Assembly (NCBI GenBank): GCA_964356005.1
Contig: CAYHGN010000001.1
Coordinates: 1,091-65,090, forward strand
Direction: 5' to 3'
Source of the DNA: an uncultured Sphingobacterium sp.
GTDB lineage: Bacteria; Bacteroidota; Bacteroidia; Sphingobacteriales; Sphingobacteriaceae
Length of the DNA: 64,000 bases
The notes under the pieces are model-generated. The model saw only the letters and a program-made list of their open reading frames with translations, was not told the DNA's origin and did no database searches. The position numbers and the translations under genes were made by a program. Below, piece after piece: positions 411-55,689 of the stretch; the first letter of the stretch is position 1, and each line of letters opens with the position of its first letter.

Positions 411-447
411 AGTTGTTAGTTGTTGGTTGGTTAGTTGTTGGTTGGTT
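411..447. repeat. 7/8-nt tandem repeat (AGTTGTT / GGTTGGTT)
   Basis: agttgtt agttgtt ggttggtt agttgtt ggttggtt; loosely complementary AAC-rich tract at about 492-511. Confidence 0.8.
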
Positions 448-500
448 AGAAAATTTAAGTTGAACCTGAAATTTATTGTAAAGATGAAGTTCAATAACAA

Positions 501-1706
501 TTAACAACCAATCACCGTTTTCAATACCCCATTCTTAAGTTTAATCAAAATATTCTTATCATGATGAACAATCAAATCTGCGGGTTCATCAATCTTTATT
601 TTTTTTGTTTGGGTTAAAGTAAAGAATTCACAGTTAATTTCATCATAGCCAAAATAATCTGAGAGATCGCCCAACTCAGTTACCATGTAAGTATATTTTA
701 CCGATTTGGCATCCTTGGTGATTTTCTCATCTGCACAAAGTCCAATGTCAAGATTGTAGGGGATGCCATTTTTTTCAAGTTTGCAATTCCTGAGTAAAAT
801 GTGAAAATGTAGTTTTTTATTTTCTGGAATTGAAAAATAATTTTTGTTTTTAGCCTTGAGATAGGATTCTTCAGCGATACTGATCAGGCCTGAAAGGATG
901 GCTTTAAAAAATATTTTTCGGATATATTGTTTCTCTGGGTCATGGTAAAAACCACCTGCTTCGATCAGTATAGTGCTGGTTCCGGCGGCCTGAAAATTAT
1001 CGCCAAATGCCCTGGGTTCATATTCATCATCAAAGCGTCCTACCTGACCAGGTATAGTTTTTTGAATTGCAAAATTCATAATGGAAATCACCTTCATCGC
1101 CTGTTCCCTTGTAGTATTTACACTTAGGGCTTCATCGTACGCGGGAGCCAGCAAAGAGATTGTAGCCGGATTTCCGGTGCTTCCTGCCGACCATAAAGTG
1201 CTCTGATCGTGAAGGTTAAAGCCAAAATGAGGCTTAATTTCATCTCGTAAATGGCGTAAAATTCTACCTTCCGGGCTCTGTTGCCGGTGGAAATCCCGGT
1301 TAATGTCGATATCCATCGCATTCCGGCGATTGAATACTTCTGCACCATCCGGATTTACCATAGGTAAAATATACAAAGTGCATTTTTCAGCAAGTAAACC
1401 ATGAATGTGTTGGAACTGTCCGGGCTTTGATAAAAAATTCAACAGATCAGCAATAGACATTGTAGCTGTTGCTTCATCACCATGCATCTGGCTCCATATA
1501 AATACCCGTTTGGGGCCTTTGCCCCAGGTAATCAGATTGAGGGAGCGTCCATGGGTTGAATAACCTGCTTCTTTCAAACTAAAAGCAGAATTTTTCTTTA
1601 ATTTATTCAAGATTTTCAGGAGCTCAGCCTGCTTGAAAAAACGATTTTTAATTCGCTTTTCTTCAAATGCCTGATAATTTTCCATGAGAATATTGAGCAG
1701 ATCCAT
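501..1706 (-). CDS. M14 family zinc carboxypeptidase
   Basis: HGDE zinc motif, NPDG, NRRN, DINRD and NLHDQ motifs. Confidence 0.85.
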   Translation of the reverse strand: MDLLNILMENYQAFEEKRIKNRFFKQAELLKILNKLKKNSAFSLKEAGYSTHGRSLNLITWGKGPKRVFIWSQMHGDEATATMSIADLLNFLSKPGQFQHIHGLLAEKCTLYILPMVNPDGAEVFNRRNAMDIDINRDFHRQQSPEGRILRHLRDEIKPHFGFNLHDQSTLWSAGSTGNPATISLLAPAYDEALSVNTTREQAMKVISIMNFAIQKTIPGQVGRFDDEYEPRAFGDNFQAAGTSTILIEAGGFYHDPEKQYIRKIFFKAILSGLISIAEESYLKAKNKNYFSIPENKKLHFHILLRNCKLEKNGIPYNLDIGLCADEKITKDAKSVKYTYMVTELGDLSDYFGYDEINCEFFTLTQTKKIKIDEPADLIVHHDKNILIKLKNGVLKTVIGC

Positions 1707-1763
1707 CCGACTAAATTAGTATTTACCACGGGAATATTATTCAATTTTAAATTTCAATTGAAT

Positions 1764-1801
1764 AAAAAAAGCATCCTTTCCGGGATGGAAAGAATGCTTT
1801 T
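1764..1801 (-). terminator. Intrinsic terminator downstream of htpG
   Basis: Stem aaagcatcctttcc / ggaaagaatgcttt followed by a U-tract on the minus strand. Confidence 0.8.
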
Positions 1802-1830
1802 AAATTTATCTGATTGTTTGATTGAAATTA

Positions 1831-3714
1831 TCAGATCAAACTCACACTCCGGTTCACAAATTCGGTTAATTCAGCACCAGTGAGCATACCTTGTGACAAT
1901 AATGCCAGATCAAAAGCTTGTTTTGCCAGTTGAGTTTGTTCTGCCTCATCCTGAGTTAAAAGGATTTTACCGATAAGCTTATGGTTACCATTTATAGCTA
2001 CATTATAATTATCCGGCAGATTGCCATAGAAGCCCATTCCTCCGCCCATTTTAGACATATCCTTCATTCTGCGCATAAATTCATCCATGGTCACGATAAC
2101 AGGAAGTTCTTCGGGATTAAGGCTTTCAATTTCAATCCGCATGTTTGGTTTAACAATAGCCTTTTCAAAGATTGCTTTGACCTTTGCTTTTTCCTCGTCG
2201 TTCAATACATGAACAGTTTGGTCTTCTTTGCTGATAATCTTATCTGCAACATCAGCATCAACTCGCTTCAGAGATGTTTTTTCAAGTTTTTGCTCCAGCT
2301 GACTGATAAAGTGCGGATCAATAGGAGAGTTCAGGTTCAAAACGTCATAGCCCTTTTTGTTTGCCGACTGGATGAAGGTATCCTGCTTATCTGTATCAGT
2401 TGCATAAAGATAAACAAGCATATCATTCTTGTCGGTCTGAGCTTCTTTTACTTTTCCTTTGTATTCTTCAAGGGTAAAATATTCGTTCTTAGTATTGTTT
2501 AAAAGCACGAAATCCTTTCCCTTATCATAGAATTTTTCTTCACTAATCATTCCGTATTTCACGAATAAACCGATATCGCCCCATTTTTCTTCAAAAGCTT
2601 TACGGTCATTTTTAAATAAGGATGCTAGTTTATCGGCCACTTTTTTGGTGATGTAACTGTTGATCTTTTTAACAGCACTATCTGCCTGAAGGAAACTTCT
2701 TGAAACGTTCAAGGGTATATCAGGTGAATCAATTACTCCATGAAGCAGCATTAAAAATTCAGGAACCACGTCTTTTACTTCGTCGGTTATGAATACCTGA
2801 CGAGAGAAGAGTTTGATCTTATTTCTTTGCACTTCAAACTCGTTCTTCACTTTCGGGAAATAGAGAACACCTGTAAGATTGAACGGATAATCCACATTGA
2901 GATGGATCCAGAACAGAGGATCTTCTGAGAAGGGATAAAGTTCTTTATAGAAAGTAAGATAATCTTCGTCTTTTAGCTCAGAAGGAGATTTTGTCCATAT
3001 CGGGCTTGAATTATTGATGATATTATCAACTTCAACAGATTTGAATTTTGGTTTTCCTTCAGTATCTTCTCCATCTGGCTCCTGCTCTGATCGGGTACCA
3101 AATTGTACCGGTATTGGCAGGAATTTGCAATATTTATCAAGAATATCCTTGATTTTTGCTTTGTTTAAAAACTCTTTAGATTCTTTATTTATATGGAGAA
3201 TAATATCTGTTCCTCTGCTGGCGCGTGTCCCGGCACTGATTTCAAATTCTGTGCTTCCGTCGCAGATCCATCGCGCGGGTTCGGCACCATCCTGATATGA
3301 AAGTGTTTGAATTTCAACCTGATCAGCAACCATGAAGGCGGAATAAAACCCAAGTCCGAATTTTCCGATGATCTCATTAGCATCTTTGGCATCCTTGAAT
3401 TTTTCAACAAACTCTGTTGCACCTGAGAATGCAATCTGATTAATATATTTTTTAATTTCTTCTCCAGTCATTCCCAAACCATTGTCGGAAATGGTGATCG
3501 TCTTTTTCTTCTCATCGACCGCTACAGAAACTTTTAACTCACCCAGATCCCCCTTATATTCACCCAAAGAGGAGAGGCGTTTGATTTTTTGAGTGGCATC
3601 TACTGAATTTGCAACCAGCTCTCTCAGGAAGATCTCGTTATCAGAGTATAAAAATTTCTTAATGATTGGAAAAATGTTCTCAGTGTGAATCGAAATGGTT
3701 CCTTTTTCTTGCAT
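1831..3714 (-). CDS. htpG: Molecular chaperone HtpG (Hsp90)
   Basis: LYSDNEIFLRELVANSVDA, DNGLGMT, IGKFGLGFYSAF, IPLNVSRS; start set at MQEKGTISI. Confidence 0.97.
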   Translation of the reverse strand: MQEKGTISIHTENIFPIIKKFLYSDNEIFLRELVANSVDATQKIKRLSSLGEYKGDLGELKVSVAVDEKKKTITISDNGLGMTGEEIKKYINQIAFSGATEFVEKFKDAKDANEIIGKFGLGFYSAFMVADQVEIQTLSYQDGAEPARWICDGSTEFEISAGTRASRGTDIILHINKESKEFLNKAKIKDILDKYCKFLPIPVQFGTRSEQEPDGEDTEGKPKFKSVEVDNIINNSSPIWTKSPSELKDEDYLTFYKELYPFSEDPLFWIHLNVDYPFNLTGVLYFPKVKNEFEVQRNKIKLFSRQVFITDEVKDVVPEFLMLLHGVIDSPDIPLNVSRSFLQADSAVKKINSYITKKVADKLASLFKNDRKAFEEKWGDIGLFVKYGMISEEKFYDKGKDFVLLNNTKNEYFTLEEYKGKVKEAQTDKNDMLVYLYATDTDKQDTFIQSANKKGYDVLNLNSPIDPHFISQLEQKLEKTSLKRVDADVADKIISKEDQTVHVLNDEEKAKVKAIFEKAIVKPNMRIEIESLNPEELPVIVTMDEFMRRMKDMSKMGGGMGFYGNLPDNYNVAINGNHKLIGKILLTQDEAEQTQLAKQAFDLALLSQGMLTGAELTEFVNRSVSLI

Positions 3715-3746
3715 TTTCTTATTTGTTTGAATTACAATGCTCATTC

Positions 3747-3787
3747 ATCAATACTTATTCCAAAAGTAAATTATGTCAAGTTGACAT
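3747..3787 (-). promoter_or_regulatory. Sigma54-like element (TGGAATAAGTATTGAT) plus palindrome ATGTCAAGTTGACAT upstream of htpG
   Basis: GG-N10-GA on the minus strand at 3762-3747; perfect 7-bp inverted repeat at 3773-3787. Confidence 0.4.
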
Positions 3788-3930
3788 TTTTTAGGGCATA
3801 TTTTAATAATAAACTGTCAGTTTTTGAATGAATCCGGGCAATTTTTGGCTAATTAAGTTTCATCACCGGTTTGAGATAATAGACCTAAGCAGAGAATTTT
3901 TATGCAGAGTAAAGAATACCCACATGACTT

Positions 3931-3946
3931 CGGCACATTTGTTGCG
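3931..3946 (+). promoter_or_regulatory. Candidate sigma54 (-24/-12) promoter
   Basis: CGGCACATTTGTTGCG fits TGGCAC-N5-TTGC with exact GG-N10-GC spacing. Confidence 0.45.
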
Positions 3947-4031
3947 ATAATGCCAAACTATAAAATCAATTAAATTTTAAAATTGGTTAAAAACCTGATT
4001 AACAATAATTTAATTTAATATCCGAAGGTGC

Positions 4032-5732
4032 ATGAAGTGTTTAAAATACAAAATCAACATGAATAATAGTACAAAAATTCAAGAAGGAAGTTTATTCAAA
4101 ACCTTCAGAAATCGAGCTGAAAAATTCTTTTTCACTTTATCTGTTCTTTCCCTCGTATTTTTTGCTTCATCCTGTAAAAATTCAAGTACAAGGTTTTCTG
4201 ATGAAGATCAGCAGGTACTTGATAGCACATACTATATAGATTATATTAAAGCAGATACAAAACTTGCAGATCAATTGCAATTGGTGAAATCATTCTACCG
4301 GGTTAGAAAATATGAACTGGCCTGGTTTAAGAAAAATACAATTGTTCCTCAGGCAGAAAAAATGCTTGAGGTGATAACCAAAGCTGCTGATGAAGGACTT
4401 GACCCGGCAGATTACCGTTTAGCCGATTTGGATAAATTGTTTAAAGAACTTAAGGCGTCGAAGCGGGATTTTGACAAATTCACTGAAATTCAAAAGGAGC
4501 TTGATGTAGCATTAACCGGGACGTATTTTTTATGGGCTTCCGACTATTACCGTGGACTTGTAGTGCCTAATGAGAATAAGGAAATTGAATGGGATGTGAA
4601 AAAGAATAAGATCAAACTTGACGGGGCATTGATGACTGTTCTGGGTGAAAGGGAAAGTAAATATCCTTATGCAAGTTTTAGTCCGCTACACGATGAATAT
4701 TCAAGGCTTAAGACATCTTTGGCTGAGTACAGAAAGATACAGGCATCAGGAGGATGGCCTAATGTTGAGGCCTCACCTAAGTTAAAGCACTTACAAAGCT
4801 CAACTATAATCCCTACGATCAGAAAACGCCTGGGATTACCGGAAGTAGAAGGTACTGTTTACACTGATGAAGTTTTTGACGCGGTAAAGCAATTTCAGGC
4901 TATTCAGGGTTTAAAACCTGATGGAGTTCTGGGTGCTGAAACGGTAAAGATTATGAATATTCCCATTAATGATCGAATAAGGCAAATCATATTGAATATG
5001 GAAAGATGGCGTTGGATTCCACGAAGCTTCGAGCCTGATTATCTTTTGGTCAATATTCCTGAATACAAATTGTATGTTTATGAGGAAGGCAAGGAAAAAC
5101 TTTCGATGAATGTGATTGTTGGGAAAGCAATAAACAGCACACCTGTTTTTAGTGATAGAATGGAAAATGTTGTGCTTTCACCCTATTGGAATGTGCCTTT
5201 CAGTATTATTAAAGAAGAATTGGCACCAAAAATCATGTCCAATCCTTCTTATCTCGACCGACTTGATATGGAAGTCGTTACTACTTCAGGAGAGCAAATC
5301 GATCCGGCTTCCATAAATTGGAATGAAATAACTGAAGATAACTGGAAGTATAATTTACGCCGACGTCCGGGGCCCAAAAATGATTTGGGTAATGTAAAGT
5401 TTATATTCCCAAATTCAAATAATATTTATCTTCATGATACACCACATGATGAGTTATTCAGTCAGGCAAAACGTGGTTTTAGTCATGGTTGTGTTCGGGT
5501 CGAAAAGCCGATGGAACTTGCCGAATATTTGCTTAGAAATTCCGGGAACTGGAGTAAGTCGCAGATTTTAGAGACTATTTCCAAGCGGGAGGAGAAACAG
5601 GTGCCTTTAAAAGCATCCCTGCCAGTGTACCTGGTCTATTTTACCGCCTGGACTGATGAGAATGGGCAGGTTCATTTCCGTGATGATATCTATGGACATG
5701 ATAAAACACTGGCGGAACATTATTTTAATTAA
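4032..5732 (+). CDS. L,D-transpeptidase (YcbB/LdtD-like) lipoprotein with peptidoglycan-binding domain
   Basis: Lipobox [22 protein letters not shown]-binding motif, [14 protein letters not shown] and SHGCVR catalytic motif; true start may be 4059. Confidence 0.92.
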
Positions 5733-7321
5733 CTCCTCGCTTTATTAAACTCCGAAGTGTTATGAAATTCAACTTCCGGAAAATCACGTTTTGCAAGATT
5801 TAATGTCCAATCGTTATCAGCAAGAAATACAGGATTTCCATCCTTATCAGTCGCAATATGATGATGTCTGCGTTGGGTTATTTCATTAATATTCTTCTTG
5901 TCTTTTGAAGTCATCCAGCTTGACTTTCTAAAGGTAAGTGGTCTGAATGCACATTTTGCGCCATATTCATGCTGAAGTCTGAACACGATTACCTCATATT
6001 GAAGTTCTCCAACTGTACCGATAATTTTCCGGTTTCCGGGTTGTTGAACAAACAATTGAGCAACACCCTCTTCTGTTAATTGCTGCAAGCCTTTTTCAAG
6101 CTGTTTGGATTTTAAAGGGTCCCGGTTTTCTACCTCCTTGAATATTTCAGGAGAAAAGCTTGGAATACCCTTAAACTGTAATTGTTCACCTTCAGTTAAA
6201 GTATCCCCGATTTTAAAATTTCCACTATCATAAAGCCCTACAACATCACCCGGCCATGCCTCTTCAACCAGACTTTTTTCATTGGCCATGAAATCTACAG
6301 GGTTTGAAAATTTCAATTTTTTATTAAGTCGGGTATGATAAAAGAATTTGTTTCGCTCAAATTTTCCTGAACATATTCTTAAAAACGCAATTCTGTCGCG
6401 ATGGTTCGGATCGAGGTTGGCATGTATTTTAAATACAAATCCTGTAAAATTCTTTTCATTTGCCATAACCATACGCTCATTAGCTTCACGGCTTTTTGGG
6501 CTTGGTGCAATGGCAACGAATGTGTCAAGCAATTCGCGAATTCCGAAATTATTTATGGCACTTCCGAAGAAAACAGGGGCAAGTAGGCCTTCAAGATATA
6601 GGTCTTTATCCAGATTTCCATAAACCCCATCAACAAGTTCAAGGTCATCCTGTAAAGTTTTAAGTTCCTTAGGTTGCAAAAATTGAGTCAGGAGAGGGTC
6701 ATTAAGATCTTTGACCTGTATTACAGGTTCGCTGATTTTAGATTTATCAGGCTTAAAAAGATTCAGTTGCTTATCGAAAATATTATAAACTCCCTTAAAA
6801 TTATAACCTTGACCAATTGGCCATGAGAGTGGGCATACACTGATATTAAGCTTGTTTTCGAGTTCATCAAGCAATTCAAAGGTGTCTTTTCCTTCGCGGT
6901 CAAGCTTATTGACAAATATGATCACCGGAGTATTCCGCATCCGGCAGACATCCATTAGTTTTTGTGTTTGTTCCTCAACACCTTTCACACTGTCGACAAC
7001 CAGAATTACACTATCTACTGCAGATAAAGTACGGTAAGTGTCTTCCGCAAAATCCTTATGCCCGGGTGTATCCAGAATATTGATTCGTTTACCATTATAC
7101 TCAAAGCCCATCACAGAAGTAGCAACAGAAATCCCCCGTTGTTTTTCAATTTCCATGAAATCGGATGTGCTGCTTTGATTTGCTTTGTTTCGTTTTACTG
7201 TACCTGCAGTATTGATTGCCCCTCCAAAAAGAAGAAATTTTTCAGTCAGCGTTGTTTTACCAGCATCAGGGTGGCTAATGATTGCAAATGTTTTTCTTTT
7301 TTCAATTTCAGGATTTAGCAT
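5729..7321 (-). CDS. prfC: Peptide chain release factor 3
   Basis: [45 protein letters not shown]. Confidence 0.97.
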
Positions 7322-7345
7322 ATTTAAAAAAGGAGGGTATTGAGA

Positions 7346-7393
7346 TTAATAGGGTAGGTTTAGAGATACCGGTATGATACCTGGATTATTCAT
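7346..7393 (-). CDS. Putative 15-aa leader ORF upstream of and in frame with prfC (MNNPGIIPVSLNLPY)
   Basis: ATG 7 nt after a TAnnTTTG box; TAA at 7348-7346; eight sense codons to the prfC ATG. Translation unproven. Confidence 0.3.
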   Translation of the reverse strand: MNNPGIIPVSLNLPY

Positions 7394-7400
7394 AATCCTG

Positions 7401-7408
7401 CAAAGATA
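7401..7408 (-). promoter_or_regulatory. Bacteroidota -7 promoter box for prfC
   Basis: TATCTTTG on the minus strand. Confidence 0.6.
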
Positions 7409-7423
7409 ATAATATTTTGTAAG

Positions 7424-31860: not shown

Positions 31861-31906
31861 CAAAATTATTATTTTTTACGTATACTTTTTAATTATTTTA
31901 CGTATA
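31861..31906 (-). promoter_or_regulatory. TA operon promoter (-7 box) with two candidate operator repeats
   Basis: TAATTTTG at 31868-31861; TTTTACGTATA at 31874 and 31896. Confidence 0.6.
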
Positions 31907-31909
31907 AAA

Positions 31910-32788
31910 TTAATAAATTTCTTTTTTTGCAGAGGCTAGGGTATTTTTGAGTAAGCCTACAATGGTCATCAAGCCCACACCTCCAGGAACAGGAGTAATC
32001 CATGAGCATTTAGGTGCTACATTTTCAAAATCTACATCTCCGTAAAGTTTATAACCTGATTTGGTCTCTGAGGAAATTTCGCGATTCATGCCCACATCAA
32101 TCACAATAGCACCTTCTTTTACCATGTCGGCTGTAATGAAATTCTTTTTACCAATTGCAACGATCAGTATATCAGCATCAAGACTGTATTTTTTAATATC
32201 CGGAGTTTTACTATGGCAGATGGTTACTGTGCAATTTCCAGGATTTGTATTCCTTGCCATTAATATACTCATCGGTGAACCCACAATATTACTTCTGCCA
32301 ACAACCACACAATGTTTACCAGCAGTATCGATTCCGTATTCCTGAAGCATCAGTAAAATGCCATAAGGAGTTGCCGGTAAAAAGGAGGGAAGATTACGTT
32401 GCATCCTGCCGAGGTTAACCGGATGGAAGCCATCTACATCTTTTGATGGAGATATTTTTTCAGTAACCTTATCTGCAGAAATATGTTTTGGAAGAGGAAG
32501 CTGTACAAGGATGCCATCTGTTTCAGGATCTCTATTTACTTCCTCGATTTTCCGAAGTAATTCTTCCTCAGTGATTGTATTCTCAAAGCGATACAATGTT
32601 GAATTAAAACCTACCTTTTCACAGTTCTTTATTTTGCTGGCAACATAGGTTTCTGAACCACCATCATGCCCAACAAGTATGGCTACCAGATGGGGTTTAC
32701 GGCCTGTATTTTTTAAAATTTCGGCCGCCTCGATTGCGATTCTTTCTTTTAGTTTCTCTGAAACAAATTTCCCGTCGAGTAACTGCAT
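31910..32788 (-). CDS. folD: Methylenetetrahydrofolate dehydrogenase/cyclohydrolase
   Basis: [37 protein letters not shown]. Confidence 0.97.
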
Positions 32789-34850: not shown

Positions 34851-35984
34851 ATGACCATTGGTATTTTGCTTGAGCCCAACCCGGAAACACGGGTATCATT
34901 AATTCCCGAACATATTTCAATCCTGAAAAAACAAAATATAAATGTATTGGCCGAAAGCAATTGCGGTTCAAATGCATTTGCTCCTGATATACTTTATACT
35001 GAACAGGGTGCAGAAACTGGTTCAAGAGAGAATGTTTTAAAAAATTCAGACATCTTATTGAGTATTCATCCACTAACTGAGGATGACCTTAAGAAGGCAA
35101 AAAAATCAGCCGTTATATTGGGTGTTTTTTATCCCTTAGCCAATTTCGATTTAATTAAGAAATGGGCCGGGCTTGGATTCACGACATTCAGTATGGATAT
35201 GCTACCCCGTACAACCAGGGCTCAAAGCATGGATATCCTGAGTTCGCAGGCTAATATTGCTGGCTATAAAGCTGTAATTTTAGCTGCTATGCAACTTCCT
35301 AAGTATTTTCCGATGTTTATGACTGCTGCCGGGAGTATCGCTCCGGCAAAGGTGATGATTCTTGGAGCAGGAGTTGCCGGACTTCAGGCTATTGCGACAG
35401 CCAAACGTTTAGGTGCTGTTGTCGAAGTTTTTGATACCCGCCCTGCAGTTAAAGAAGAAGTAATGAGTCTTGGAGCCAAATTTATTGAAGTGGAGGGTGC
35501 CCTTGATGCTTCAAAAGCAGGAGGTTATGCGGTTGACCAGACCGAAGAATATAAACAAAAACAACAGGCCCGAATTGCAGAAGTTGCATCCAAAGCGGAT
35601 GTAATCATTACAACTGCACAGATTCCTGGTAAAAAAGCTCCGATTCTATTGCCCGACAGTATTTTGGATAATATGAAAGCCGGTTCTCTTATAATCGACC
35701 TTGCCTCGATAACGGGAGGAAATACAACCAGAACTAAAGACTGTGAAACTATAGTATATAAAAATGTAACAATTATTGGCAATTCAAACCTGCAGGGAAC
35801 CATGCCATCTGATTCAAGTAAGTTATATGGTAAGAATATTTTAAACTTTCTGCAACTCATCATCGGGAAAGAGGGACAACTCAATTTGAATTTTGAGGAT
35901 GATTTGGTGAAAGGTACTTGCATCACCAATAATGGCGAAGTGTGTAATGACAGGGTGAAGGAATTGACTGGGAGTAAGTTGTAA
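34851..35984 (+). CDS. pntA: NAD(P) transhydrogenase alpha subunit, domain I
   Basis: ETRVSL, PRTTRAQSMDILSSQANIAGY, GAGVAGL, TTAQIPG. Confidence 0.95.
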   Translation: MTIGILLEPNPETRVSLIPEHISILKKQNINVLAESNCGSNAFAPDILYTEQGAETGSRENVLKNSDILLSIHPLTEDDLKKAKKSAVILGVFYPLANFDLIKKWAGLGFTTFSMDMLPRTTRAQSMDILSSQANIAGYKAVILAAMQLPKYFPMFMTAAGSIAPAKVMILGAGVAGLQAIATAKRLGAVVEVFDTRPAVKEEVMSLGAKFIEVEGALDASKAGGYAVDQTEEYKQKQQARIAEVASKADVIITTAQIPGKKAPILLPDSILDNMKAGSLIIDLASITGGNTTRTKDCETIVYKNVTIIGNSNLQGTMPSDSSKLYGKNILNFLQLIIGKEGQLNLNFEDDLVKGTCITNNGEVCNDRVKELTGSKL

Positions 35985-36022
35985 GTTATAAGTTGTAAGT
36001 TATAAGTTATAAGTTATAAGTA
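35974..36022. repeat. 7-nt tandem repeat (RTAAGTT) x7
   Basis: gtaagtt gtaagtt ataagtt gtaagtt ataagtt ataagtt ataagta. Confidence 0.95.
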
Positions 36023-36081
36023 ATAGGTTTTTAAAAAGCAACAAACTGCTAAATCATAATATTTAACAATAGATATAGAAA

Positions 36082-37860: not shown

Positions 37861-37863
37861 CTG

Positions 37864-37969
37864 AGCTTAAAGCCAAAAGCTAAAAGGATAAAGCCGGATT
37901 GGCTCTTAACTTACTTCTTTTCGACTTAAACTATTAACTGTTAGCTTTCTGCTTTTAGCTTTCCGCTTC
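37864..37969. repeat. Inverted pair of 7-nt tandem arrays (AGCnAAA / TAGCTTT)
   Basis: agcttaa agccaaa agctaaa aggataa agccgga ... tagcttt ctgcttt tagcttt ccgcttc. Confidence 0.75.
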
Positions 37970-39348: not shown

Positions 39349-39469
39349 AAGTATTGAGTAGATTTTTAATATACAACGGTATAATACCGAATTTCAGAAT
39401 AGTATCTGTTATAACAAACAAGATGCCGAAAACCCTATAATTCAGGACTTTTGAAAAATAAAAAAAAAT

Positions 39470-39853
39470 GCAAGCCTGTAAGCCGGGTTCTGTATCCGCC
39501 AAGGGCGGAATCTATCATTTATCTGGTCGCGCAATTACTCGCGAGATCTAACGACCTACCCATTCCGGATAATCCCGTACGTACGGGATAAGAAGGCGAG
39601 CAGCCTCACTTCCGGAACCTATTTGGTCTTTCAACTCCTGGGGTTTACCGCACTGCATGTCACCATACAATACCGTGAGCTCTTACCTCACGTTTTCACC
39701 TTTTCCCCCAAACAAAAGTTTGAGGGTAGTATATTTTCTGTGGCACTTTCCGTCACCACTTTCGCGATGCCTTCCCGTTAGGAAGCAGGATGCTCTATGT
39801 TGCCCGGACTTTCCTCTTTCCCGCAAATGCGGGAGAGCGATAGATCGGCTTGC
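39470..39853 (-). ncRNA. rnpB: RNase P RNA (bacterial type A)
   Basis: Minus strand has GAGGAAAGTCCGGGC near the 5' end and ACAGAACCCGGCTTA near the 3' end; P1 gcaagcc/ggcttgc; TATCTTTG box at 39865-39858. Confidence 0.97.
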
Positions 39854-39876
39854 TTAACAAAGATAGTAATTTGTTA

Positions 39877-46418: not shown

Positions 46419-46748
46419 TCAAACTTTGCTTGAGAGTTTTAATCCAATGATTGAAGATAATAAAAGAAAGAGGAAAAACATCCGCCAGAATTCGGTTGGG
46501 TCTTTAAATAGAATTATTCCTGCAATCACCGATCCTGCGGCACCAATTCCAGCCCAAACAGCATAAGAAGTGCCCATCGGTATGGTTTTAGATGCAAGGT
46601 ATAATAAATACATACTGATTGAAACACTAATCAGAAAACCCGTTATCCATAAAATGAATTCAATACCTGAAGTTTCTTTAGCTTTAGCGAGACAGCTTGT
46701 AAAGGCTACTTCAAATAAGCCACCAATAATAAGGTAAATCCAGGCCAT
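46419..46748 (-). CDS. Small multidrug resistance (SMR; SugE/Gdx-like) transporter
   Basis: MAWIYLIIGGLFEV with conserved Glu, IPMGTSYAVWAGIG, four TM helices. Confidence 0.9.
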   Translation of the reverse strand: MAWIYLIIGGLFEVAFTSCLAKAKETSGIEFILWITGFLISVSISMYLLYLASKTIPMGTSYAVWAGIGAAGSVIAGIILFKDPTEFWRMFFLFLLLSSIIGLKLSSKV

Positions 46749-46755
46749 AGAATTT

Positions 46756-46822
46756 AATTGAGAGTTGAGAATTGAGAATGAATAGTCGGTAATTTTCAAC
46801 TCTCCATTCTCCATTCTCAATT
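46756..46822. repeat. Inverted pair of 7-nt tandem arrays (AATTGAG / CTCMATT)
   Basis: aattgag agttgag aattgag aatgaat ... ttcaact ctccatt ctccatt ctcaatt. Confidence 0.9.
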
Positions 46823-46823
46823 A

Positions 46824-48212
46824 TTAAAGGTGTATCACTTCCCCGTAAGCATCAGCAGCAGCTTCCATAATTGCTTCACTCATAGTAGGGTGTGGGTGGA
46901 CAGTTTTTACAATATCCATACCGGTAGTTTCCAGTTTTCTGGCGACTACAACTTCTGCAATCATTTCTGTCACGTTGGCACCGATCATGTGTGCGCCCAG
47001 AAACTCCCCATACTTAGCATCGAAGATTACTTTTACAAAACCATCTTTAGCACCGGCCGCACTTGCCTTCCCTGAGGCAGAAAATGGAAATTTGCCAACT
47101 TTTATTTCGTATCCGGCTTCTTTGGCTGCTTTTTCCGTATAACCTACAGATGCAATCTCAGGGGAGCAATAGGTACATCCCGGTATGTTGTTATAATTTA
47201 AAGGCTCTGGATGATGTCCTGCAATCTTTTCAACGCATATAATGCCTTCAGCAGAGGCAACGTGTGCCAGAGCCTGTCCTTTTACGATATCACCAATCGC
47301 ATAAACACCTTCAATATTTGTTTTGTAAAAATCATCAACCTTTATACGACCCTTGTCGATCGTAACTCCAAGTTCTTCAAGTCCGATATTTTCAAGGTTA
47401 GGACTTACCCCAATAGCAGAAAGAACTATATCACACTCAATTGTTTCTGTACCCACTGCCGTTTTTACCAGTACTTTACATCCGCTGCCGGAGGTGTCCA
47501 CTGATTCAACATTGGTTCCGGTCATTACGTTGATGCCAGCTTTTTTAAAGCTTCTCAATAATTGCTTTGATATATCTTCATCCTCTACAGGAACTATATT
47601 TTCGAGATATTCAACAATAGTAACTTTGGTTCCTATAGCATTGTAGAAATATGCAAATTCCACTCCTATTGCTCCTGATCCAACAATAACCATAGATTTA
47701 GGCTGCTGCTGTAAAACCATTGCCTGACGGTATCCAATTACTTTTTTTCCATCTTGCTTTAGGTTTGGTAATTCCCTTGATCTTCCACCTGTTGCCAGAA
47801 TTATATGTTTGGCTGTGAATTCTTTATCTGTGCCATCCGGACCCTTAACTTCAACTTTTCCACCTTTTTTTACCTTTCCTGTTCCTGTGATCACATCAAT
47901 CTTATTTTTCTTCATCAGGAACTGAACCCCTTTGCTCATTCCATCAGCAACACCGCGGCTTCGCTTAATTATGGCACCAAAATCAGCACTTGCATCCTTC
48001 ACCTTGATTCCATAATCTGAAGCATGGCTTATATATTCAAAAACATTTGCACTTTTCAGAAGGGCTTTTGTGGGAATACACCCCCAGTTTAAACAGATTC
48101 CTCCGAGGGATTCACGTTCAACCACAGCAACTTTTAAGCCTAATTGAGATGCGCGAATAGCTGCCACGTAACCGCCTGGTCCGCTACCTATAACTATGAT
48201 GTCGTAGTTCAT
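46824..48212 (-). CDS. lpdA: Dihydrolipoamide dehydrogenase
   Basis: GSGPGGYVAA, GGICLNWGCIPTK, HPHPTMSE; TAGATTTG box at 48253-48246. Confidence 0.97.
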   Translation of the reverse strand: MNYDIIVIGSGPGGYVAAIRASQLGLKVAVVERESLGGICLNWGCIPTKALLKSANVFEYISHASDYGIKVKDASADFGAIIKRSRGVADGMSKGVQFLMKKNKIDVITGTGKVKKGGKVEVKGPDGTDKEFTAKHIILATGGRSRELPNLKQDGKKVIGYRQAMVLQQQPKSMVIVGSGAIGVEFAYFYNAIGTKVTIVEYLENIVPVEDEDISKQLLRSFKKAGINVMTGTNVESVDTSGSGCKVLVKTAVGTETIECDIVLSAIGVSPNLENIGLEELGVTIDKGRIKVDDFYKTNIEGVYAIGDIVKGQALAHVASAEGIICVEKIAGHHPEPLNYNNIPGCTYCSPEIASVGYTEKAAKEAGYEIKVGKFPFSASGKASAAGAKDGFVKVIFDAKYGEFLGAHMIGANVTEMIAEVVVARKLETTGMDIVKTVHPHPTMSEAIMEAAADAYGEVIHL

Positions 48213-51400: not shown

Positions 51401-51751
51401 TATGCTGAGCGTAACGGCGGAAAGCAGCCCTGGAGAAATCAGGTAGACATCAGATTAACTCAGGAAATTTTCAAGAACTTCGGTAAGAGCAGAAACAATT
51501 TTCAGTTCACAATGGATATTATGAACTTTGGAAATATGTTAAACAGCAGCTGGGGTAATGTTGATTTTGTTAAGTCCGCTGGTTTACTTGTACCACAGAA
51601 CGTAGCCGCTCTAACACCAGGTGGAACCGTTAAGCCTACATTCTGGTTAAATACGTTTAATAACAAGCCTGTAGATTCAACTTTTGGAACCACTCAGACG
51701 TTTGCTTCAACATATTATATGCAATTTGGATTCCGTTACAATTTCCAATAA
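48458..51751 (+). CDS. TonB-dependent outer membrane receptor (Oar-like, N-terminal carboxypeptidase-regulatory-like domain)
   Basis: Signal NLSA|Q, NMRVGGPY, ISIDAIEEI, INAVTRSG, terminal QFGFRYNF; TATCTTTG box at 48402-48409. Confidence 0.92.
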   Translation: MKKFLLSTLVVLLLAFNLSAQVTTSSLSGTIRDSKESLIGATIKATHQPTGTIYGSSSGVDGRFNIPNMRVGGPYLIVVSYVGYQSESFSEVMLKLGEPFVLNVLLAASGRELQEVVITAQDPNSVLNANRTGSTTNLGRAQIQSVPTITRSVNDLTKFTPQANGASIGGGNYRQNNFTVDGSDFNNQFGIGSNLPAGGSPISIDAIEEISVNVTPYDVRMSGFVGSAINAVTRSGRNDFFGNAFFGFRNESNQGNKVGANNIVLQPLDETQFAFSLGGPIIKDKLFFFANIDRTAQVRPGQNRLAATPSAPFGSNPNIARPTSTELDNIRSYLMKTYNYDPGIYQGYANETYNNKILARLDWNINKDHRFNIRYNQVESASPSFISTSTSGTGFNFPNNGGRNNPGHLHFSNSNYTQEANQYSLAAELNSTLGSKLSNTLRGSFTHQNDPRGSASDVFPLVDIMKDGTAFTTFGYEPFTYGNLRDVQTYSFTDNLTMSLGNHELTLGLQMDFSTTKNGFQRFGTGAYRFNSWDDFVNGVKPNDYAITYSLSPGYAQAFPTFKFQQYSAYFQDNFRVGEKLNITAGLRFELPTYPDVPEIKTHPLIAPLTFSEGRKLDTGVLPKERIMLSPRIGFNYDIKGDRSLQLRGGTGIFTTKVPFVWIVAQSGDAGLIQFTQNWNGTANTPGPFSQDIRKYLPATPPTAGTSIPATISAIDPDFKFPQTWKSSLALDAKLPWGIVGTLEGIYNKDLNIAKGYNVNLVDPAALNVSGYPDNRPMYPAANVSKFINKLTNGQASATGTGALNPVVLDNAQDGHSWFLTASLNKSFSRGLSAQVSYTKSQQKVLFDGNGDQLFNTWSLTQTSITGNNPGLSYSNFNIPDRVIAGLSYRQEYIKNLATTVSMFFEASHQGRFSYTYSTDFNRDGQTNDLIYIPRNASEITFTDRPASSATSNVAYTAQQQSDLFFAYIEQDDYLKKNKGKYAERNGGKQPWRNQVDIRLTQEIFKNFGKSRNNFQFTMDIMNFGNMLNSSWGNVDFVKSAGLLVPQNVAALTPGGTVKPTFWLNTFNNKPVDSTFGTTQTFASTYYMQFGFRYNFQ

Positions 51752-51761
51752 CAGTTTTAAA

Positions 51762-51805
51762 TTCAAAAAAAAGCTTCGGATTCCATCCGGAGCTTTTTTT
51801 TTGAA
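51762..51805 (+). terminator. Intrinsic terminator (bidirectional type)
   Basis: A-tract, gcttcgga-ttcca-tccggagc, T-tract. Confidence 0.88.
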
Positions 51806-51880
51806 AAAACAATTGTGTTGTCTGGTTTTATTTCTTTTGGCTGTATATTTGAGTTGACCAATTAATTAAAATTCCATTTT

Positions 51881-54094
51881 ATGAAAAAAGTGAATTATGT
51901 CATAGCACTGCTGATGGCATTTGTACTGGGTTTTGGAAATCCGGTGAAAGCCGACGAAGGGATGTGGTTGCCAATGCTTATTGGCAAGAACTACGATCAA
52001 ATGAAAAAGCAGGGCTTCAAATTAACCCCTGAAGATCTTTATAGTGTAAACAAAGCTAGTATTAAAGATGCGATTGTATCATTTGGGGGCTTCTGCACTG
52101 GAGAAATAGTATCTAAAAATGGTTTGATTTTAACGAATCATCATTGCGGATATGATGCTGCTGCATCTAACTCGACCTTAGAGAACAATATTCTGGATAA
52201 TGGTTTTTATGCAAAGACTTATCAGGAAGAGAAACCCATTCAGGGATTGTTTGTACGTTTCCTTGTACGTATGGAAGATGTTACTCCGAAAGTAATGGCT
52301 GCATTAAATGGAGTTGAGGATAAAGATAAAGCTGCAAAAATTGCTGAAATCATTAAAACCATCACTACTGATGCAACTTCGGGTAATACATTTGAAGCTG
52401 ATGTTAGAGATATCTATAAAGCCAATCAATACTTGCTTTTTGTTTATGAACGGTTTAATGATATCCGTTTGGTAGGTACTCCACCACAATCAATTGGTAA
52501 GTTCGGGGGAGATACTGATAATTGGGAATGGCCACGCCACACCGGTGATTTTTCCGTATTCCGCGTCTATGCAGATCAGAATAATAAATCTGCAACTTAT
52601 TCTGCGAATAATAAGCCATATACCCCTAAAAAATCACTTCCCATTTCTATTAAAGGTGTAAAGAATGGTGATTTTTCAATGGTTTATGGTTTTCCTGGCC
52701 GTACAGATCGTTACTTAACCTCCAATGGCGTTCAAATGGCTGTCGAAAAATCAAATCCAACAATTGTTAAACTACGCGACATACGTTTGAAAGCATGGAA
52801 AGAGGAAATGGATAAAAGTGATGCTACGAGGCTTGCCCTTTCATCAAACTATGCCAATATTGCTAATTACTGGAAGTATTTTATTGGTCAGACTGAACAA
52901 CTAAAAAGATTGAAAATATTAGAAGAAAAGCAAAAGCAGGAAAATGATTTCACCCAATGGGCAATGTCATCACCTGATTATGCAAATTTGATGGTGCAAT
53001 ATAAAAATGCATATTCTGCTTTCGAACCTTATGCTGTTCATTTCACCTATCTTAATGAGGGACTACTTGCTTCTCCATGGGTTAGAAATGTCTCCCAGCT
53101 TGGAAATACTTTAAAAACAATGAATGCCCGTAAGGATGATGCTGCATATATTTCACAGCTCAATCAAAGTTTAAATGCTATGGTGAATGCTTATCAGAAG
53201 ACTTATAATGAGACTGCTGATAAGAAGATCTTTGCCCAAATATTGAGCTCTTTTTACAATGATGTTCCCAAATCACAACATCCAAAGTTCATTACATTAA
53301 TTGTAGAGGATTTTTGGAAAGGTTCTGCAGAGGCTACATTTCAAAATTATGCAGATAATTTATGGAAAAACAGCAAGTTGATTGAACCGGAAAACCTAAG
53401 GAAATTTCTGGGTAATCCCTCAATGGAAGAACTTCAAAACGACCCGGCTTATAAATATGCCCTTAATTTAATTCCTATGGATTATATGAAGAACAATTTT
53501 GGTACTGTTTACAGTCAGTTTCAGGCAGAGAAAAATCGTTTGGATAATCTCTACCTTAAGGCTTTACTGGCAAAAAATAAAGGTGCCTTAATCTATCCTG
53601 ATGCTAATTCAACTATGCGTATCAGTTACGGACAAATTCAGAACTACAGTCCGAAGGATGGAATTACTTATAACATCACAACCACAATTGATGGAATGAT
53701 GGCTAAGTACCAGTCTGGTGATGATGAGTTTGATCTTCCTCAATCTTTAATAGATGCTTATGCTAAACGTGATTTCGGTCAATATGCTGAGAATGGAACT
53801 CTGAATGTAGGTTTTATCAGCAATAATGATATTACTGGAGGTAATTCCGGATCACCGGTATTGAATGGGAGCGGAGAACTGATTGGTATTGCCTTTGATG
53901 GTAACTGGGAAGCGATGAGCGGTGATATTGCCTTCGATAAGCAATACAAGCGTACAATTTCTGTAGATATTCGTTTCGTACTATGGTGTATTGACGTTCT
54001 CGGTGGTGCAAAGAATATCATCAATGAAATGGATATCAGAACTAATAAGTTGCCTGTTCCAAAGGATAAATTGATAATGAAGAAAACGGAATAG
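51881..54094 (+). CDS. S46 family dipeptidyl peptidase, DPP7-like
   Basis: ADEGMW, TNHHC, DNWEWPRHTGDF, TGGNSGSPV; FDGN (Gly) rather than the FDRN of DPP11; TATATTTG box at 51844. Confidence 0.93.
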   Translation: MKKVNYVIALLMAFVLGFGNPVKADEGMWLPMLIGKNYDQMKKQGFKLTPEDLYSVNKASIKDAIVSFGGFCTGEIVSKNGLILTNHHCGYDAAASNSTLENNILDNGFYAKTYQEEKPIQGLFVRFLVRMEDVTPKVMAALNGVEDKDKAAKIAEIIKTITTDATSGNTFEADVRDIYKANQYLLFVYERFNDIRLVGTPPQSIGKFGGDTDNWEWPRHTGDFSVFRVYADQNNKSATYSANNKPYTPKKSLPISIKGVKNGDFSMVYGFPGRTDRYLTSNGVQMAVEKSNPTIVKLRDIRLKAWKEEMDKSDATRLALSSNYANIANYWKYFIGQTEQLKRLKILEEKQKQENDFTQWAMSSPDYANLMVQYKNAYSAFEPYAVHFTYLNEGLLASPWVRNVSQLGNTLKTMNARKDDAAYISQLNQSLNAMVNAYQKTYNETADKKIFAQILSSFYNDVPKSQHPKFITLIVEDFWKGSAEATFQNYADNLWKNSKLIEPENLRKFLGNPSMEELQNDPAYKYALNLIPMDYMKNNFGTVYSQFQAEKNRLDNLYLKALLAKNKGALIYPDANSTMRISYGQIQNYSPKDGITYNITTTIDGMMAKYQSGDDEFDLPQSLIDAYAKRDFGQYAENGTLNVGFISNNDITGGNSGSPVLNGSGELIGIAFDGNWEAMSGDIAFDKQYKRTISVDIRFVLWCIDVLGGAKNIINEMDIRTNKLPVPKDKLIMKKTE

Positions 54095-54096
54095 GT

Positions 54097-54155
54097 GTTG
54101 TCAGTTACCAGTTGTCGGTTACCAGCCTGGCAACTGACAACCGGTAACAGGCAAC
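54097..54155. repeat. Inverted pair of 7-nt tandem arrays (GTTRYCR x4 / complement x4)
   Basis: gttgtca gttacca gttgtcg gttacca gcc tggcaac tgacaac cggtaac aggcaac. Confidence 0.92.
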
Positions 54156-54163
54156 TATTTAGA

Positions 54164-54202
54164 AAGAAGGCTGACAGGGTTCCAAACCCTGTCAGCCTTC
54201 TT
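54164..54202. repeat. REP-like palindrome (33-bp core, stem extends to 18 bp)
   Basis: aag-aaggctgacagggtt-cca-aaccctgtcagcctt-ctt. Confidence 0.92.
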
Positions 54203-54260
54203 ATAATCCTATAATCCTATAATCCTATAATCCTATAATCCTATAATCCTATAATCCTAT
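54203..54260. repeat. Perfect 8-nt tandem repeat (ATAATCCT) x7
   Basis: Seven exact copies plus AT, abutting the purM stop codon. Confidence 0.97.
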
Positions 54261-55454
54261 TCAGTTATAGGTAAATTCCCCATAATCCGAGCGAATAGTC
54301 ACCTGCTTCATTTCTGATTCCTCCACACGACCGATAATCTGTGCATCTACATTAAATTCCTTTGAAATCCGGATGATATCATCTGCAATTTCTGAAGGAA
54401 CATAGAATTCCATCCGGTGACCCATATTGAAAACCTTATACATTTCTTTCCATTCTGTTCCTGATTGTTCCTGAATTAAGTTGAATAGTGGTGGCACTGC
54501 AAACAGGTTATCTTTTATGATATGTAAATTATCAATGAAGTGAAGTATTTTGGTTTGAGCGCCTCCGCTGCAGTGTACCATACCATGAATCTGAGACCTG
54601 TATCCATCAAGAATTTTTTTTATGATAGGAGCATAGGTGCGGGTTGGAGAAAGAACCAATTTACCAGCGCTGATGCTTAAACTTTCGTTAAAATCAGTCG
54701 CAGGAATATCAATAGAATCAGTCAATTTTTTATTTCCTGAGAAGAGCAGTTCATAGGGAACTGCAGGATCATAACTTTCAGGATATTTCTCTGCAATGTA
54801 TTTATGGAAAACGTCATGTCTGGCAGAAGTCAAACCATTGGATCCCATTCCGCCATTGTATTCGGTTTCATAACTAGCTTTACCATAAGAGGATAGCCCA
54901 ACAATTACATCACCTTTTCGGATTTTATGATTCGATATAATATCCGACCTTTTCATTCTGCAGGTTACTGTAGAATCAACAATGATCGTTCTGACAATAT
55001 CGCCAACATCGGCGGTTTCACCTCCGGTTGAATAGATTCCAATACCTAAATTGCGTAATTCGCTGAGTATGTCTTCTGTTCCATTAATCAGTTCGGCAAT
55101 GACCTCACCTGAGATAAGATTTTTATTCCGGCCAATAGTTGATGATAATAAAATATTATCTGTTGCACCAACACATAGCAGATCGTCAAGATTCATAATG
55201 ATCGCATCCTGGGCAATCCCTCTCCATACTGATATATCACCCGTCTCTTTCCAGTAAACATAAGCAAGAGATGATTTTGTACCGGCACCATCTGCATGCA
55301 TGATATTGCAATAATCATCATCAGATCCCAGAATATCCGGAATAATCTTGCAAAAGGCCTTTGGAAAAATACCTTTGTCTATATTTTTGATGGCATTATG
55401 CACATCTTCTTTATCGGCAGAAACGCCACGTTGGTTGTATTTTAGATCTGACAT
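54261..55454 (-). CDS. purM: Phosphoribosylformylglycinamidine cyclo-ligase (AIR synthetase, Bacteroidota type)
   Basis: YNQRGVSADKEDVH, HADGAGTK, GGETADVG, SNGLTSARH, VFNMGHR. Confidence 0.93.
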   Translation of the reverse strand: MSDLKYNQRGVSADKEDVHNAIKNIDKGIFPKAFCKIIPDILGSDDDYCNIMHADGAGTKSSLAYVYWKETGDISVWRGIAQDAIIMNLDDLLCVGATDNILLSSTIGRNKNLISGEVIAELINGTEDILSELRNLGIGIYSTGGETADVGDIVRTIIVDSTVTCRMKRSDIISNHKIRKGDVIVGLSSYGKASYETEYNGGMGSNGLTSARHDVFHKYIAEKYPESYDPAVPYELLFSGNKKLTDSIDIPATDFNESLSISAGKLVLSPTRTYAPIIKKILDGYRSQIHGMVHCSGGAQTKILHFIDNLHIIKDNLFAVPPLFNLIQEQSGTEWKEMYKVFNMGHRMEFYVPSEIADDIIRISKEFNVDAQIIGRVEESEMKQVTIRSDYGEFTYN

Positions 55455-55459
55455 TTATG

Positions 55460-55467
55460 CAAAAATA
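55460..55467 (-). promoter_or_regulatory. -7 promoter box for purM
   Basis: TATTTTTG ending 5 nt before the ATG. Confidence 0.55.
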
Positions 55468-55520
55468 GTACTTAGTATTGAGTATTGAGTACTGAGTATT
55501 TAGTATTTAGTACTCAATAC
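55467..55520. repeat. 7-nt tandem repeat (AGTAYTN) x7
   Basis: agtactt agtattg agtattg agtactg agtattt agtattt agtactc aatac. Confidence 0.93.
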
Positions 55521-55604
55521 AAGAAATTTTGTTTGTGATTATGAATAATAAACTTTTAATCCAAATGTATAAGATTGTACCAGATTGGATTAATTTGTTG
55601 TAAA

Positions 55605-55638
55605 CAAAAAGAGTCCCCCATTAGGAAGACTCTTTTTG
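55605..55638 (-). terminator. Intrinsic terminator downstream of the GSIII gene
   Basis: caaaaagagtc ... gactctttttg inverted repeat with flanking A/T tracts. Confidence 0.8.
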
Positions 55639-55654
55639 AACTTAGTTCAGAATT

Positions 55655-55689
55655 TTCAAATCTCGATACTCTGTACTCAAATCTCAATA
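55655..55689. repeat. 7-nt tandem array, inverted relative to 55467-55520
   Basis: ttcaaat ctcgata ctctgta ctcaaat ctcaata, abutting the GSIII stop codon. Confidence 0.8.

Follow-up and report, generated by a model that had tools for sequence, protein, structure and literature searches.

Arrays of a tandemly repeated seven-base unit stand at gene boundaries in a 64,000-nt stretch of DNA from an uncultured Sphingobacterium sp. (NCBI GenBank assembly GCA_964356005.1, contig CAYHGN010000001.1, positions 1,091 to 65,090; the whole stretch is called the window here). The unit differs from locus to locus, and the question is which process writes and spreads such arrays. No accepted origin for an excess of intergenic heptamers is found in the literature cited below. 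The original prediction, made from the window alone, ascribed the arrays to one dedicated system and pointed to a link with four-helix-bundle (4HB) genes of the TIGR02436 type; both suggestions are supported by the present analysis. Our reading, to which we give even chances, is that the arrays are dispersed repeats of a protein-plus-repeat system resembling REP/RAYT or NTS/SsnA, spread by polar recombination, with predicted binding of the repeats by 4HB proteins of family PF05635, a family without known function. The pairing of each paralog with a unit makes both the origin of the heptamers and the function of PF05635 testable by a binding assay.

Heptamer arrays and the proteins that share their units

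All six arrays reported earlier are in place (Table 1), with three to eight copies of the unit instead of the four to seven that had been counted. A complementary partner arm was called significant when its score exceeded the 99th percentile of the null (cut 10.5). Five of the six loci have such a partner, as had been claimed, with scores of 11-19.5; the locus at 35974 has none (score 6). RNA folding of five loci gave z -6.5 for 46750-46826 and z -6.9 for 54090-54162, and z -1.2 to -2.3 for the other three, short ones.

A tandem-repeat scan of the whole assembly (G000; 3.66 Mb, 229 contigs, 89% complete, the window being contig C1) found 226 mostly intergenic arrays of period 7 and 44 of period 8, vs 1, 5, 7 and 2 arrays at periods 5, 6, 9 and 10, respectively; two order-3 Markov sequences used as controls gave 0-2 arrays per period. 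The anticipated excess of period 7 is therefore genome-wide, and the counts refute independent slippage at AT-rich gene ends as the sole cause. Slippage is consistent with a copy number that varies freely among close relatives, but not with the fixed polarity of the arrays or with the match between protein and unit described below, and we leave an origin without any dedicated system next to no probability. Many arrays lie at contig ends or beside N scaffold gaps, so the assembly breaks at them and the count of filled cassettes may be too low.

The polarity follows the neighbouring genes. Stop codons are followed within 30 nt by 151 arrays, of which 122 contain more G than C on the mRNA strand, and of the 55 arrays before a start 45 contain more C than G; in paired gaps, 63 of 75 arms fit a G-rich arm on the left and a C-rich arm on the right. 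The position is tight too, with 142 of 204 G-rich arrays beginning between -25 and +10 relative to a stop. Of the proposed AG register, the dinucleotide itself is enriched: AG stands in 117 of the 140 post-stop units, vs 86.3 after letter shuffling (p<0.001), and in 40 of the 57 distinct ones, vs 30.3. It is not a property of every unit, as some of the over a dozen unit families in this genome have no AG. G-tracts of the quadruplex type are absent from these families, GGG occurring in just one of the 57 distinct post-stop units. Stop codons in every frame do not explain the AG register (101 of 140 units, shuffle 95), and palindromic 6-mer cores are not enriched over shuffled units.

Arrays are found in 211 of 2657 gaps between genes. 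In 129 of these gaps just one arm was detected; the others have two, which are complementary in 44 gaps and non-complementary in 38. Pairing was scored by alignment, by which weak partners may be overlooked, and arm counts for individual unit families are approximate. The mismatched arms are not merely those of convergent gene pairs, since 22 of the 38 cases lie in co-directional gaps.

The assembly encodes eight PF05635 proteins, all above the family cut-off, and two of them that were scanned against TIGR02436 scored 128.5 and 99.7 bits (cut-off 24). As the original prediction stated, none lies in the window, where PF05635 has no match. Each of the eight genes is flanked by arms of its own unit, seven on both sides and one on the side not cut by a contig end, and all sit between protein-coding ORFs, not in 23S rRNA genes. 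The gene at G000:C45:14275-14514 has an early stop (81 aa), and several copies in the genus are broken too. PF05635 was detected in 48 of 55 genomes of the genus; arrays stand on both sides of 55 of the 79 homologs whose flanks are complete, and on one side or both of 76. The number of 4HB genes correlates with that of arrays (rho 0.63, 55 genomes, with kin not independent). Five of the seven genomes without a 4HB gene have no match to the test array pattern, and 4HB-less G132 has 5-10 arrays per Mb vs 104 per Mb here. The 4HB genes are under purifying selection, judging from 2099 synonymous vs 729 non-synonymous codon differences. All three Nostoc plasmid homologs examined have arms as well; one of them (L483, NZ_CP040273.1) carries arms of the unit family of our own gene C46, inverted with respect to the strand of the gene.

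The unit follows the protein. Among 108 4HB proteins of the genus, units agree within one change in 84-88% of pairs with at least 80% identity and in 0-2% of pairs below 50%. In a tree of 85 proteins both arms change their unit together, and the unit differs between sub-clades that share a junction. ACGTT arms accompany all 10 proteins with 80% or more identity to the L373 protein, AAGT/AGGT arms all 10 at 69-77%, and paralogs whose units differ by a single base (ACGTT vs AAGTT) exist in the genus. The ACGTT array pattern is present in 9 of 10 genomes with the L373-type clade vs 6 of 45 without it. The dispersed arrays show the same correspondence: 158 of 277 arrays of our genome match arms of its own cassettes (shuffle 15; arms of other genomes 38, 128 and 107). 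Matches to own arms were also seen in G063 (30 of 51) and G153 (12 of 18), of which, as of G166, only ~400 kb each were scanned, and in three of four genomes the best match of the dispersed arrays is the genome's own set of cassettes. The gene is thus flanked by its own dispersed inverted repeat, which is specific to the homolog, as in REP/RAYT and Ssn/NTS systems.

Gap alleles, cassettes and mobility

The original prediction further held that the window loci may be empty or collapsed sites of a small cassette. The orthologous gaps do not bear this out. Counting the window's own row, 4HB cargo was found in 0 of 26 gaps for site 411, 0 of 63 for pntA-pntA2, 0 of 78 for pntB, 0 of 81 for lpdA, 0 of 28 for GSIII-purM and 0 of 19 for purM-dpp7; in the gap adjacent to the second of these, pntA2-pntB, 3 of 63 relatives carry a 4HB gene. 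Simple collapse of cassettes is a poor fit for the array gaps, because cassettes are mostly at fixed junctions, no cargo is found at the window sites and matched pairs occur in only 44 of 211 gaps.

At some junctions, whole gap alleles differ between relatives. The GSIII-purM gap exists as two alleles, A and B, with different arms and terminators, and recombinants combine the left arm of one allele with the right arm of the other; stacked arms also occur. A gene tree was built from 1300 nt of the gene upstream, for which 26 of 30 loci had sufficient sequence. Alleles A and B require five changes each on this tree, their monophyly is rejected (approximately unbiased test, p 2e-43 and 7e-6), and in two starred sister pairs one member has A and the other B. 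At site 411 another unit is found in most close relatives, the closest relative is chimeric, and the own-type left arm and gene end recur in a relative at 68% identity. Compared with G153 and G166, several orthologous sites switch the unit behind near-identical gene tails. Whole gap alleles, as judged from the tree and these comparisons, are swapped between related species.

A mobile origin is the obvious alternative to exchange by recombination. The arrays could derive from a mobile 4HB cassette as miniature copies without the gene, moved in trans by a transposase, by the logic of miniature inverted-repeat transposable elements or mobile insertion cassettes, and later eroded to single or mixed arms. 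The layout of a small gene within inverted arms, whose units match those of dispersed arrays, would be expected of such an element. Three 4HB clades keep their unit at two or three different junctions, six junctions filled in relatives are empty here, and one metagenome contig (depth 2) indicates a related organism without the C20 cassette. However, most 4HB clades are confined to one junction across the genus, and four of the six empty junctions carry arrays with units differing from those of the relatives' cassettes. Two complementary termini are the exception among gaps (although weak partners may be overlooked), the window sites are without cargo, and the G-skewed coding tails described below are left unexplained. 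Words shared by the outer arm edges of seven own cassettes, with edges approximate and no precise empty allele to compare, measure 3-6 nt vs a random mode of 4-5, so that no target duplication stands out above chance. We regard a transposition origin as unlikely. Four sequencing runs over two own cassettes (contigs only, the RNA run covering little of the locus) show no excision, as their short-sided joints are probably other arrays.

The cargo is not restricted to 4HB genes. GxxExxY (PF13366) genes of G160 and G063 are flanked by arrays of the AGGATTAT octamer family, which indicates a second cargo family of the same design. PF13366 was found in three of three array-rich genomes tested and in neither of two array-poor ones. 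The own GxxExxY gene (L508, G000:C35:20400-21300) has longer (~25-nt) direct and inverted repeats alongside and no octamer runs.

A G-skewed codon zone and a predicted recombination mechanism

Genes that end at an array have a distinct codon usage in their last codons. In 107 genes with an array at the stop, the final 12 codons not covered by the array have a fraction of third-position G (G3) of 0.40 (1284 codons), vs 0.21 (23736 codons; per-gene p 7e-26). At four-fold sites G rises to 0.42 from 0.19 and C falls to 0.07 from 0.15. Every G-ending codon is raised, for example ACG (0.44 vs 0.10), so the effect is compositional and not motif-like. The zone spans ~45-60 nt and returns to the baseline by codon ~20. 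Starts of genes that follow an arm show the mirror image, with C3 of 0.29 vs 0.16 in codons 1-5. The skew was found again in three array-rich genomes (G3 0.50 in G063, 0.39 in G153 and 0.39 in G166), whereas single-gene comparisons across distant relatives were weak for pntA (4.6 vs 2.7 G in 12 codons), pntB (5.0 vs 4.3) and lpdA (2.0 vs 2.0). Cyanobacteria, which are not known to have Rho, bear on a Rho-based reading of the skew; the 400 kb of a Nostoc replicon examined hold only four genes with arrays, and the Nostoc motif also occurs at 18 loci of viral contigs. The codon zone shows that an intergenic element can set the synonymous codon choice in 5-6% of the genes of a genome, which matters for the interpretation of codon bias near stops.

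The skew is probably not a target that was present before the arrays, as 15 orthologs in array-poor G132 lack it (synonymous G 0.18 vs 0.34 here, paired p 0.019), unless it was lost and decayed in G132. Changes between the two genomes are A>G in 27 cases vs G>A in 7, and C>T in 12 vs T>C in 3. Nor is the zone a decayed extension of the array: there is no in-phase similarity upstream, no dependence on the G content of the arm (rho 0.05, 150 genes) and none on its phase. Ongoing hypermutation was rejected as well: over 20 ortholog pairs in which both genomes have the array, the tails show a synonymous difference of 0.19, and control tails one of 0.225. Eighteen ortholog pairs that differ in detected array state have more A/G differences (0.29-0.33 vs 0.15, from few sites).

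These figures bear on two explanations in which recombination has no part. In the first, breaks that recur near gene ends would be healed by a low-fidelity polymerase or end-healing activity, which would leave slippage repeats and errors biased towards G, with the 4HB genes as passengers. The gap-symmetric strand skew and the excess of A>G and C>T resemble single-strand damage or wobble errors, and a constant period with many unpaired or mixed arms would be in keeping with this origin. Against it, divergence in the zone is not raised between close relatives, and the units belong to a limited repertoire particular to the genome, which matches its resident cassettes and not the local sequence. 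PF00078 reverse transcriptases were found in neither G000 (89% complete) nor G160, DinB is absent from G000 at that completeness and present in array-poor G132, and neither enzyme co-occurs with arrays in five genomes. We consider this explanation very improbable.

The second takes the 4HB paralogs for regulators of the host. They would bind repeats located in untranslated RNA, or present a looped-out cassette to RNase III in the manner of 23S rRNA intervening sequences, and selection on expression would keep arrays and G-rich tails. This would explain the tight coupling of the arrays to stops and starts and the strong hairpins at two of the five folded loci, and tails that are not hypermutable fit weak selection. 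RNA binding by Avd (bioRxiv 2023.10.23.563531), RNase III cleavage of the Coxiella intervening sequence with heptamers before its S23p ORF (PMC4990558) and the translational control proposed by MacGregor (PMC4679880) point in the same direction. However, the pre-start and post-stop arms are complementary on the mRNA and cannot be one RNA-binding site, and units are freely replaced at the same junction. Avoidance of pairing with the arm is excluded as the cause of the skew, since skewed tails pair with it no less than controls (-8.57 vs -8.55 kcal/mol) and the skew is equal beside unpaired arms. A promoter-like motif stands between arm and ATG in 7 of 70 cases, where the skew at gene heads seems to remain (56 sites only). 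A regulatory origin is in our view improbable, about as much so as transposition.

A bias that is strand-polar, short-range, gap-symmetric and stable where alleles swap fits biased conversion better than damage or RNA pairing, and we propose the following mechanism. Each small 4HB gene mostly keeps to one junction, inside inverted arms of its own unit of 7 or 8 bases, and these units are shared by ~200 further junctions. The protein likely binds its unit and would bias homologous recombination, whereby gap alleles with arms would replace one another between related species. The protein may be a pentamer like its solved relatives, reading about one unit per subunit, and may act on single-stranded donor DNA entering by transformation. 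Crossovers would fall within ~50 nt of the outer edge of the arm, and repeated rounds of polar conversion with a preference for G on that strand would leave the codon skew and let new arms stack at the gene edge. The G-skewed zone would then be a measurable footprint of the mechanism. Binding of the tandem unit and a bias of recombination are suggested by the shared layout with NTS/SsnA and REP/RAYT, by the five-chain relatives and by base reading in Avd. The structural relatives of the 4HB proteins are PDB 2GSC and 2RLD, with five chains each, and solved relatives of the S23p family are described as five-chain rings (PMC4990558). Avd binds flipped-out RNA bases between its protomers (bioRxiv 2023.10.23.563531).

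Several observations weigh against binding and biased recombination. Two of the three most distant L373 relatives (57-68% identity) also have ACGTT arms, four genomes without a detected clade, all fragmented, hold 19-74 ACGTT matches, and G153 has the protein clade and zero ACGTT match. G166 breaks the diagonal of own matches, with 12 of 48 arrays matching its own arms vs 18 matching those of G153, and 119 of the 277 arrays here match no own cassette arm in the 89% complete genome. Linkage alone accounts for the match of protein and unit at the cassette, copying from cassette ends could be the source of the genome-wide match, and kin are not independent in any of the protein-unit or repertoire tests. 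The test of alleles covers one junction, and ordinary homologous transfer could have scattered them. The codon skew persists, more weakly, at distances of over 40 nt between stop and array (G3 0.32-0.34, 27 genes); six G063 orthologs without a detected array still have a G3 of 0.49; and at four-fold sites G was gained from all three other bases, unlike transition-only conversion. ComEC is present in all five genomes tested, array-rich and array-poor alike, and we know of no catalytic activity in the 4HB family.

Known repeat systems and the loci of the window

Intergenic heptamers have been described before. Those of Xanthomonas (GGGAATC) and Nostoc (GGGGA(C/T)T), with one unit per genome studied, were read as G-quadruplex elements (Rehm 2015, PMC4692102). 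They share with ours the period, the intergenic position, a G-rich strand within 50 nt after stops, an antisense orientation before starts, the frequent inverted pairs and about four units per array; ours differ by their many unit families, the lack of G-tracts and the tie to 4HB paralogs. The words searched in that paper gave no link to a 4HB protein ('helix', 0 hits). The TAACTGA repeats of Beggiatoaceae, cyanobacteria and Bacteroidetes, for which S1, Csp and CsrA were named as binding candidates (MacGregor 2015, PMC4679880), form heptamer runs ending a few bases before starts, and TAACTGA is the pre-start form of one of our families. That work has no inverted-arm model, unlike the present one, and 'four helix' and 'S23' have 0 hits in it. 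In Coxiella, an S23p ORF (PF05635) lies in the inverted-repeat stem of an RNase III-cut intervening sequence of 23S rRNA, with heptamers before the ORF (PMC4990558). Protein family, inverted repeats around the ORF, heptamers before it and sporadic distribution are common to both, whereas our genes lie between protein-coding genes and the repeats are dispersed over ~200 junctions.

RAYT proteins of REP/REPIN elements are HUH nucleases. SsnA is a GIY-YIG nuclease that acts with NTS/SRM repeats, 20-50-nt hairpins; for this system and for RAYT/REP a role in transformation or genome dynamics has been put forward (Chenal 2025, PMC11893778, where RAYT/REP is cited). The likeness to our arrays lies in a small single-domain gene within its own inverted repeats, hundreds of dispersed copies and a repeat specific to the homolog. 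Unlike these nucleases, the 4HB protein is an Avd-like helical bundle for which no catalysis is known; tandem heptamers form its arms, and the 8-12 coexisting paralogs differ in their units. The two 4HB proteins scanned match only TIGR02436 and Avd-like families and PDB 2GSC and 2RLD, not GIY-YIG or HUH nucleases. Avd of diversity-generating retroelements forms a homologous pentameric barrel whose protomer interfaces each offer one pocket for nucleic acid (bioRxiv 2023.10.23.563531). The 4HB protein stays below the cut-off of the Avd model NF033474 (31.5 vs 80 bits, E 1.7e-7), and G000 and G160 have no PF00078 reverse transcriptase that would make the arrays part of such an element. DNA uptake sequences offer another comparison: these repeats accumulate by biased recombination, or molecular drive, and shape coding sequence, as one fixed motif per species that is often intragenic. 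The present arms differ in being tandem and at gene edges, with a compositional effect on codons.

Heptamer excess, orientation at stops and starts and inverted pairs are therefore already published for Xanthomonas, Nostoc, Beggiatoaceae and some Bacteroidetes (PMC4692102, PMC4679880), as are heptamers beside an S23p ORF in Coxiella (PMC4990558); the excess of period 7 and the G-rich and C-rich polarity found here agree with them. Literature searches on four helix bundle with heptamer, on TIGR02436 and on S23 with tandem repeat, with the supplements of PMC4679880, PMC4692102 and PMC11893778 (which may name 4HB genes) outside their scope, found no genome-wide link of heptamers to 4HB paralogs. 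Four features were not seen in earlier descriptions, no search of print having been aimed at the codon skew: the unit that follows the 4HB sub-clade, the fixed-junction cassettes, the scattered gap alleles and the G-skewed codon zone. A wider generalisation, which we put forward tentatively and think rather doubtful, would make S23p/Avd-like 4HB pentamers programmable readers of tandem repeats, one heptamer per paralog. Polar arms at hundreds of gene boundaries would serve them as points of exchange between species, through strand-biased recombination that rewrites neighbouring synonymous codons; such a nuclease-free selfish drive would be the general source of the bacterial heptamer excess.

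The features of the window are collected in Table 1. Beside the arrays, NCBIfam models matched pntA, pntA2, pntB, a sigma-54 response regulator, an SMR transporter, lpdA, dpp7 and purM, with only lpdA above the cut-off; the 724-aa and 401-aa genes have no NCBIfam match. Among named records, lpdA is closest to one of Daejeonella sp. (89%), which places the genome in the Sphingobacteriaceae.

Table 1. Arms, gene tails and signals at the array loci of the window
Feature	Position	Strand	Remarks
Heptamer arm, AGTTGTT/GGTTGTT on + strand, with GTTGGTTA octamers	409..449	-	C/A-rich on mRNA; ends just before ATG 407-405; unit family of the arm of own 4HB gene C194
Partner arm overlapping stop codon (501-503) of 401-aa gene	492..513	-	Relatives have other units in the gap
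G-skewed pntA tail	35935..35973	+	7/12 codons before the stop end in G vs 0.17 in gene body; 3-4 of the 7 fall inside the array
Single G-rich arm, TAAGTTA x7.9, no partner	35974..36029	+	Provides pntA stop codon (35982-35984); unit family also in 3 close relatives
AGCTAAA-type arm directly after pntB stop	37861..37886	+	Unit family of own 4HB gene C29
Complementary arm directly after stop of convergent sigma-54 response regulator gene	37941..37968	-	
Arm just before SMR-transporter ATG at 46748	46752..46779	-	C-rich on mRNA; unit family of own 4HB gene C8; relatives L191 and L192 carry other units at the lpdA-SMR site
G-rich arm directly after lpdA stop	46801..46823	-	Pairs with 46752-46779 (z -6.5)
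Arm pair with 3-nt loop directly after dpp7 stop	54095..54156	+	Hairpin z -6.9; array 54095-54125
Terminator-like inverted repeat between convergent dpp7 and purM arms	54165..54201		From sequence inspection
Octamer arm AGGATTAT x7.4 (mRNA strand) directly after purM stop	54202..54260	-	Seventh array, absent from the original prediction; unit family brackets GxxExxY nuclease-fold genes in relatives (L509, L510)
G-skewed purM tail	54264..54308	-	5/11 aligned synonymous sites G vs 1/11 in array-poor G132
TAnnTTTG element between arm and purM ATG	55460..55467	-	Presumably promoter-like
Arm abutting purM promoter-like element	55467..55514	-	C-rich on mRNA; gap allele A; unit family of own 4HB gene C20:8378
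G-rich arm starting at stop of 724-aa gene	55647..55689	-	Gene called GSIII in the original prediction; terminator-like hairpin and promoter-like motif between the two arms (55467-55689)

The SMR-family efflux gene (46419-46748, - strand; SugE-like, below the cut-off) lies between lpdA and a lactonase-like gene and is missing from the lpdA junction in relative L194. The sole Rfam matches in the window are an ordinary RNase P class A RNA (39463-39856, - strand) and a tRNA (63722-63795, + strand). AT-rich low-complexity tandem repeats of period 10-22 at 31862-31920 and 57921-57987 are unrelated to the heptamer families.

Other small elements occupy junctions of the same kinds. After one stop codon (G000:C145:5900-6460) a ~145-nt unit with several arm types is present in three tandem copies. 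In G153 and G166 a short perfect palindrome (~16 nt) is inserted into AGAGTTG-type arms at several sites, and it also occurs at other Bacteroidota loci (L151, L171). Further small palindromic elements were seen in a gap of our genome (G000:C69) and at L014, L018 and L120, one of them resembling the NTS/SRM consensus of PMC11893778. Such junctions seem to host a whole community of intergenic mini-elements.

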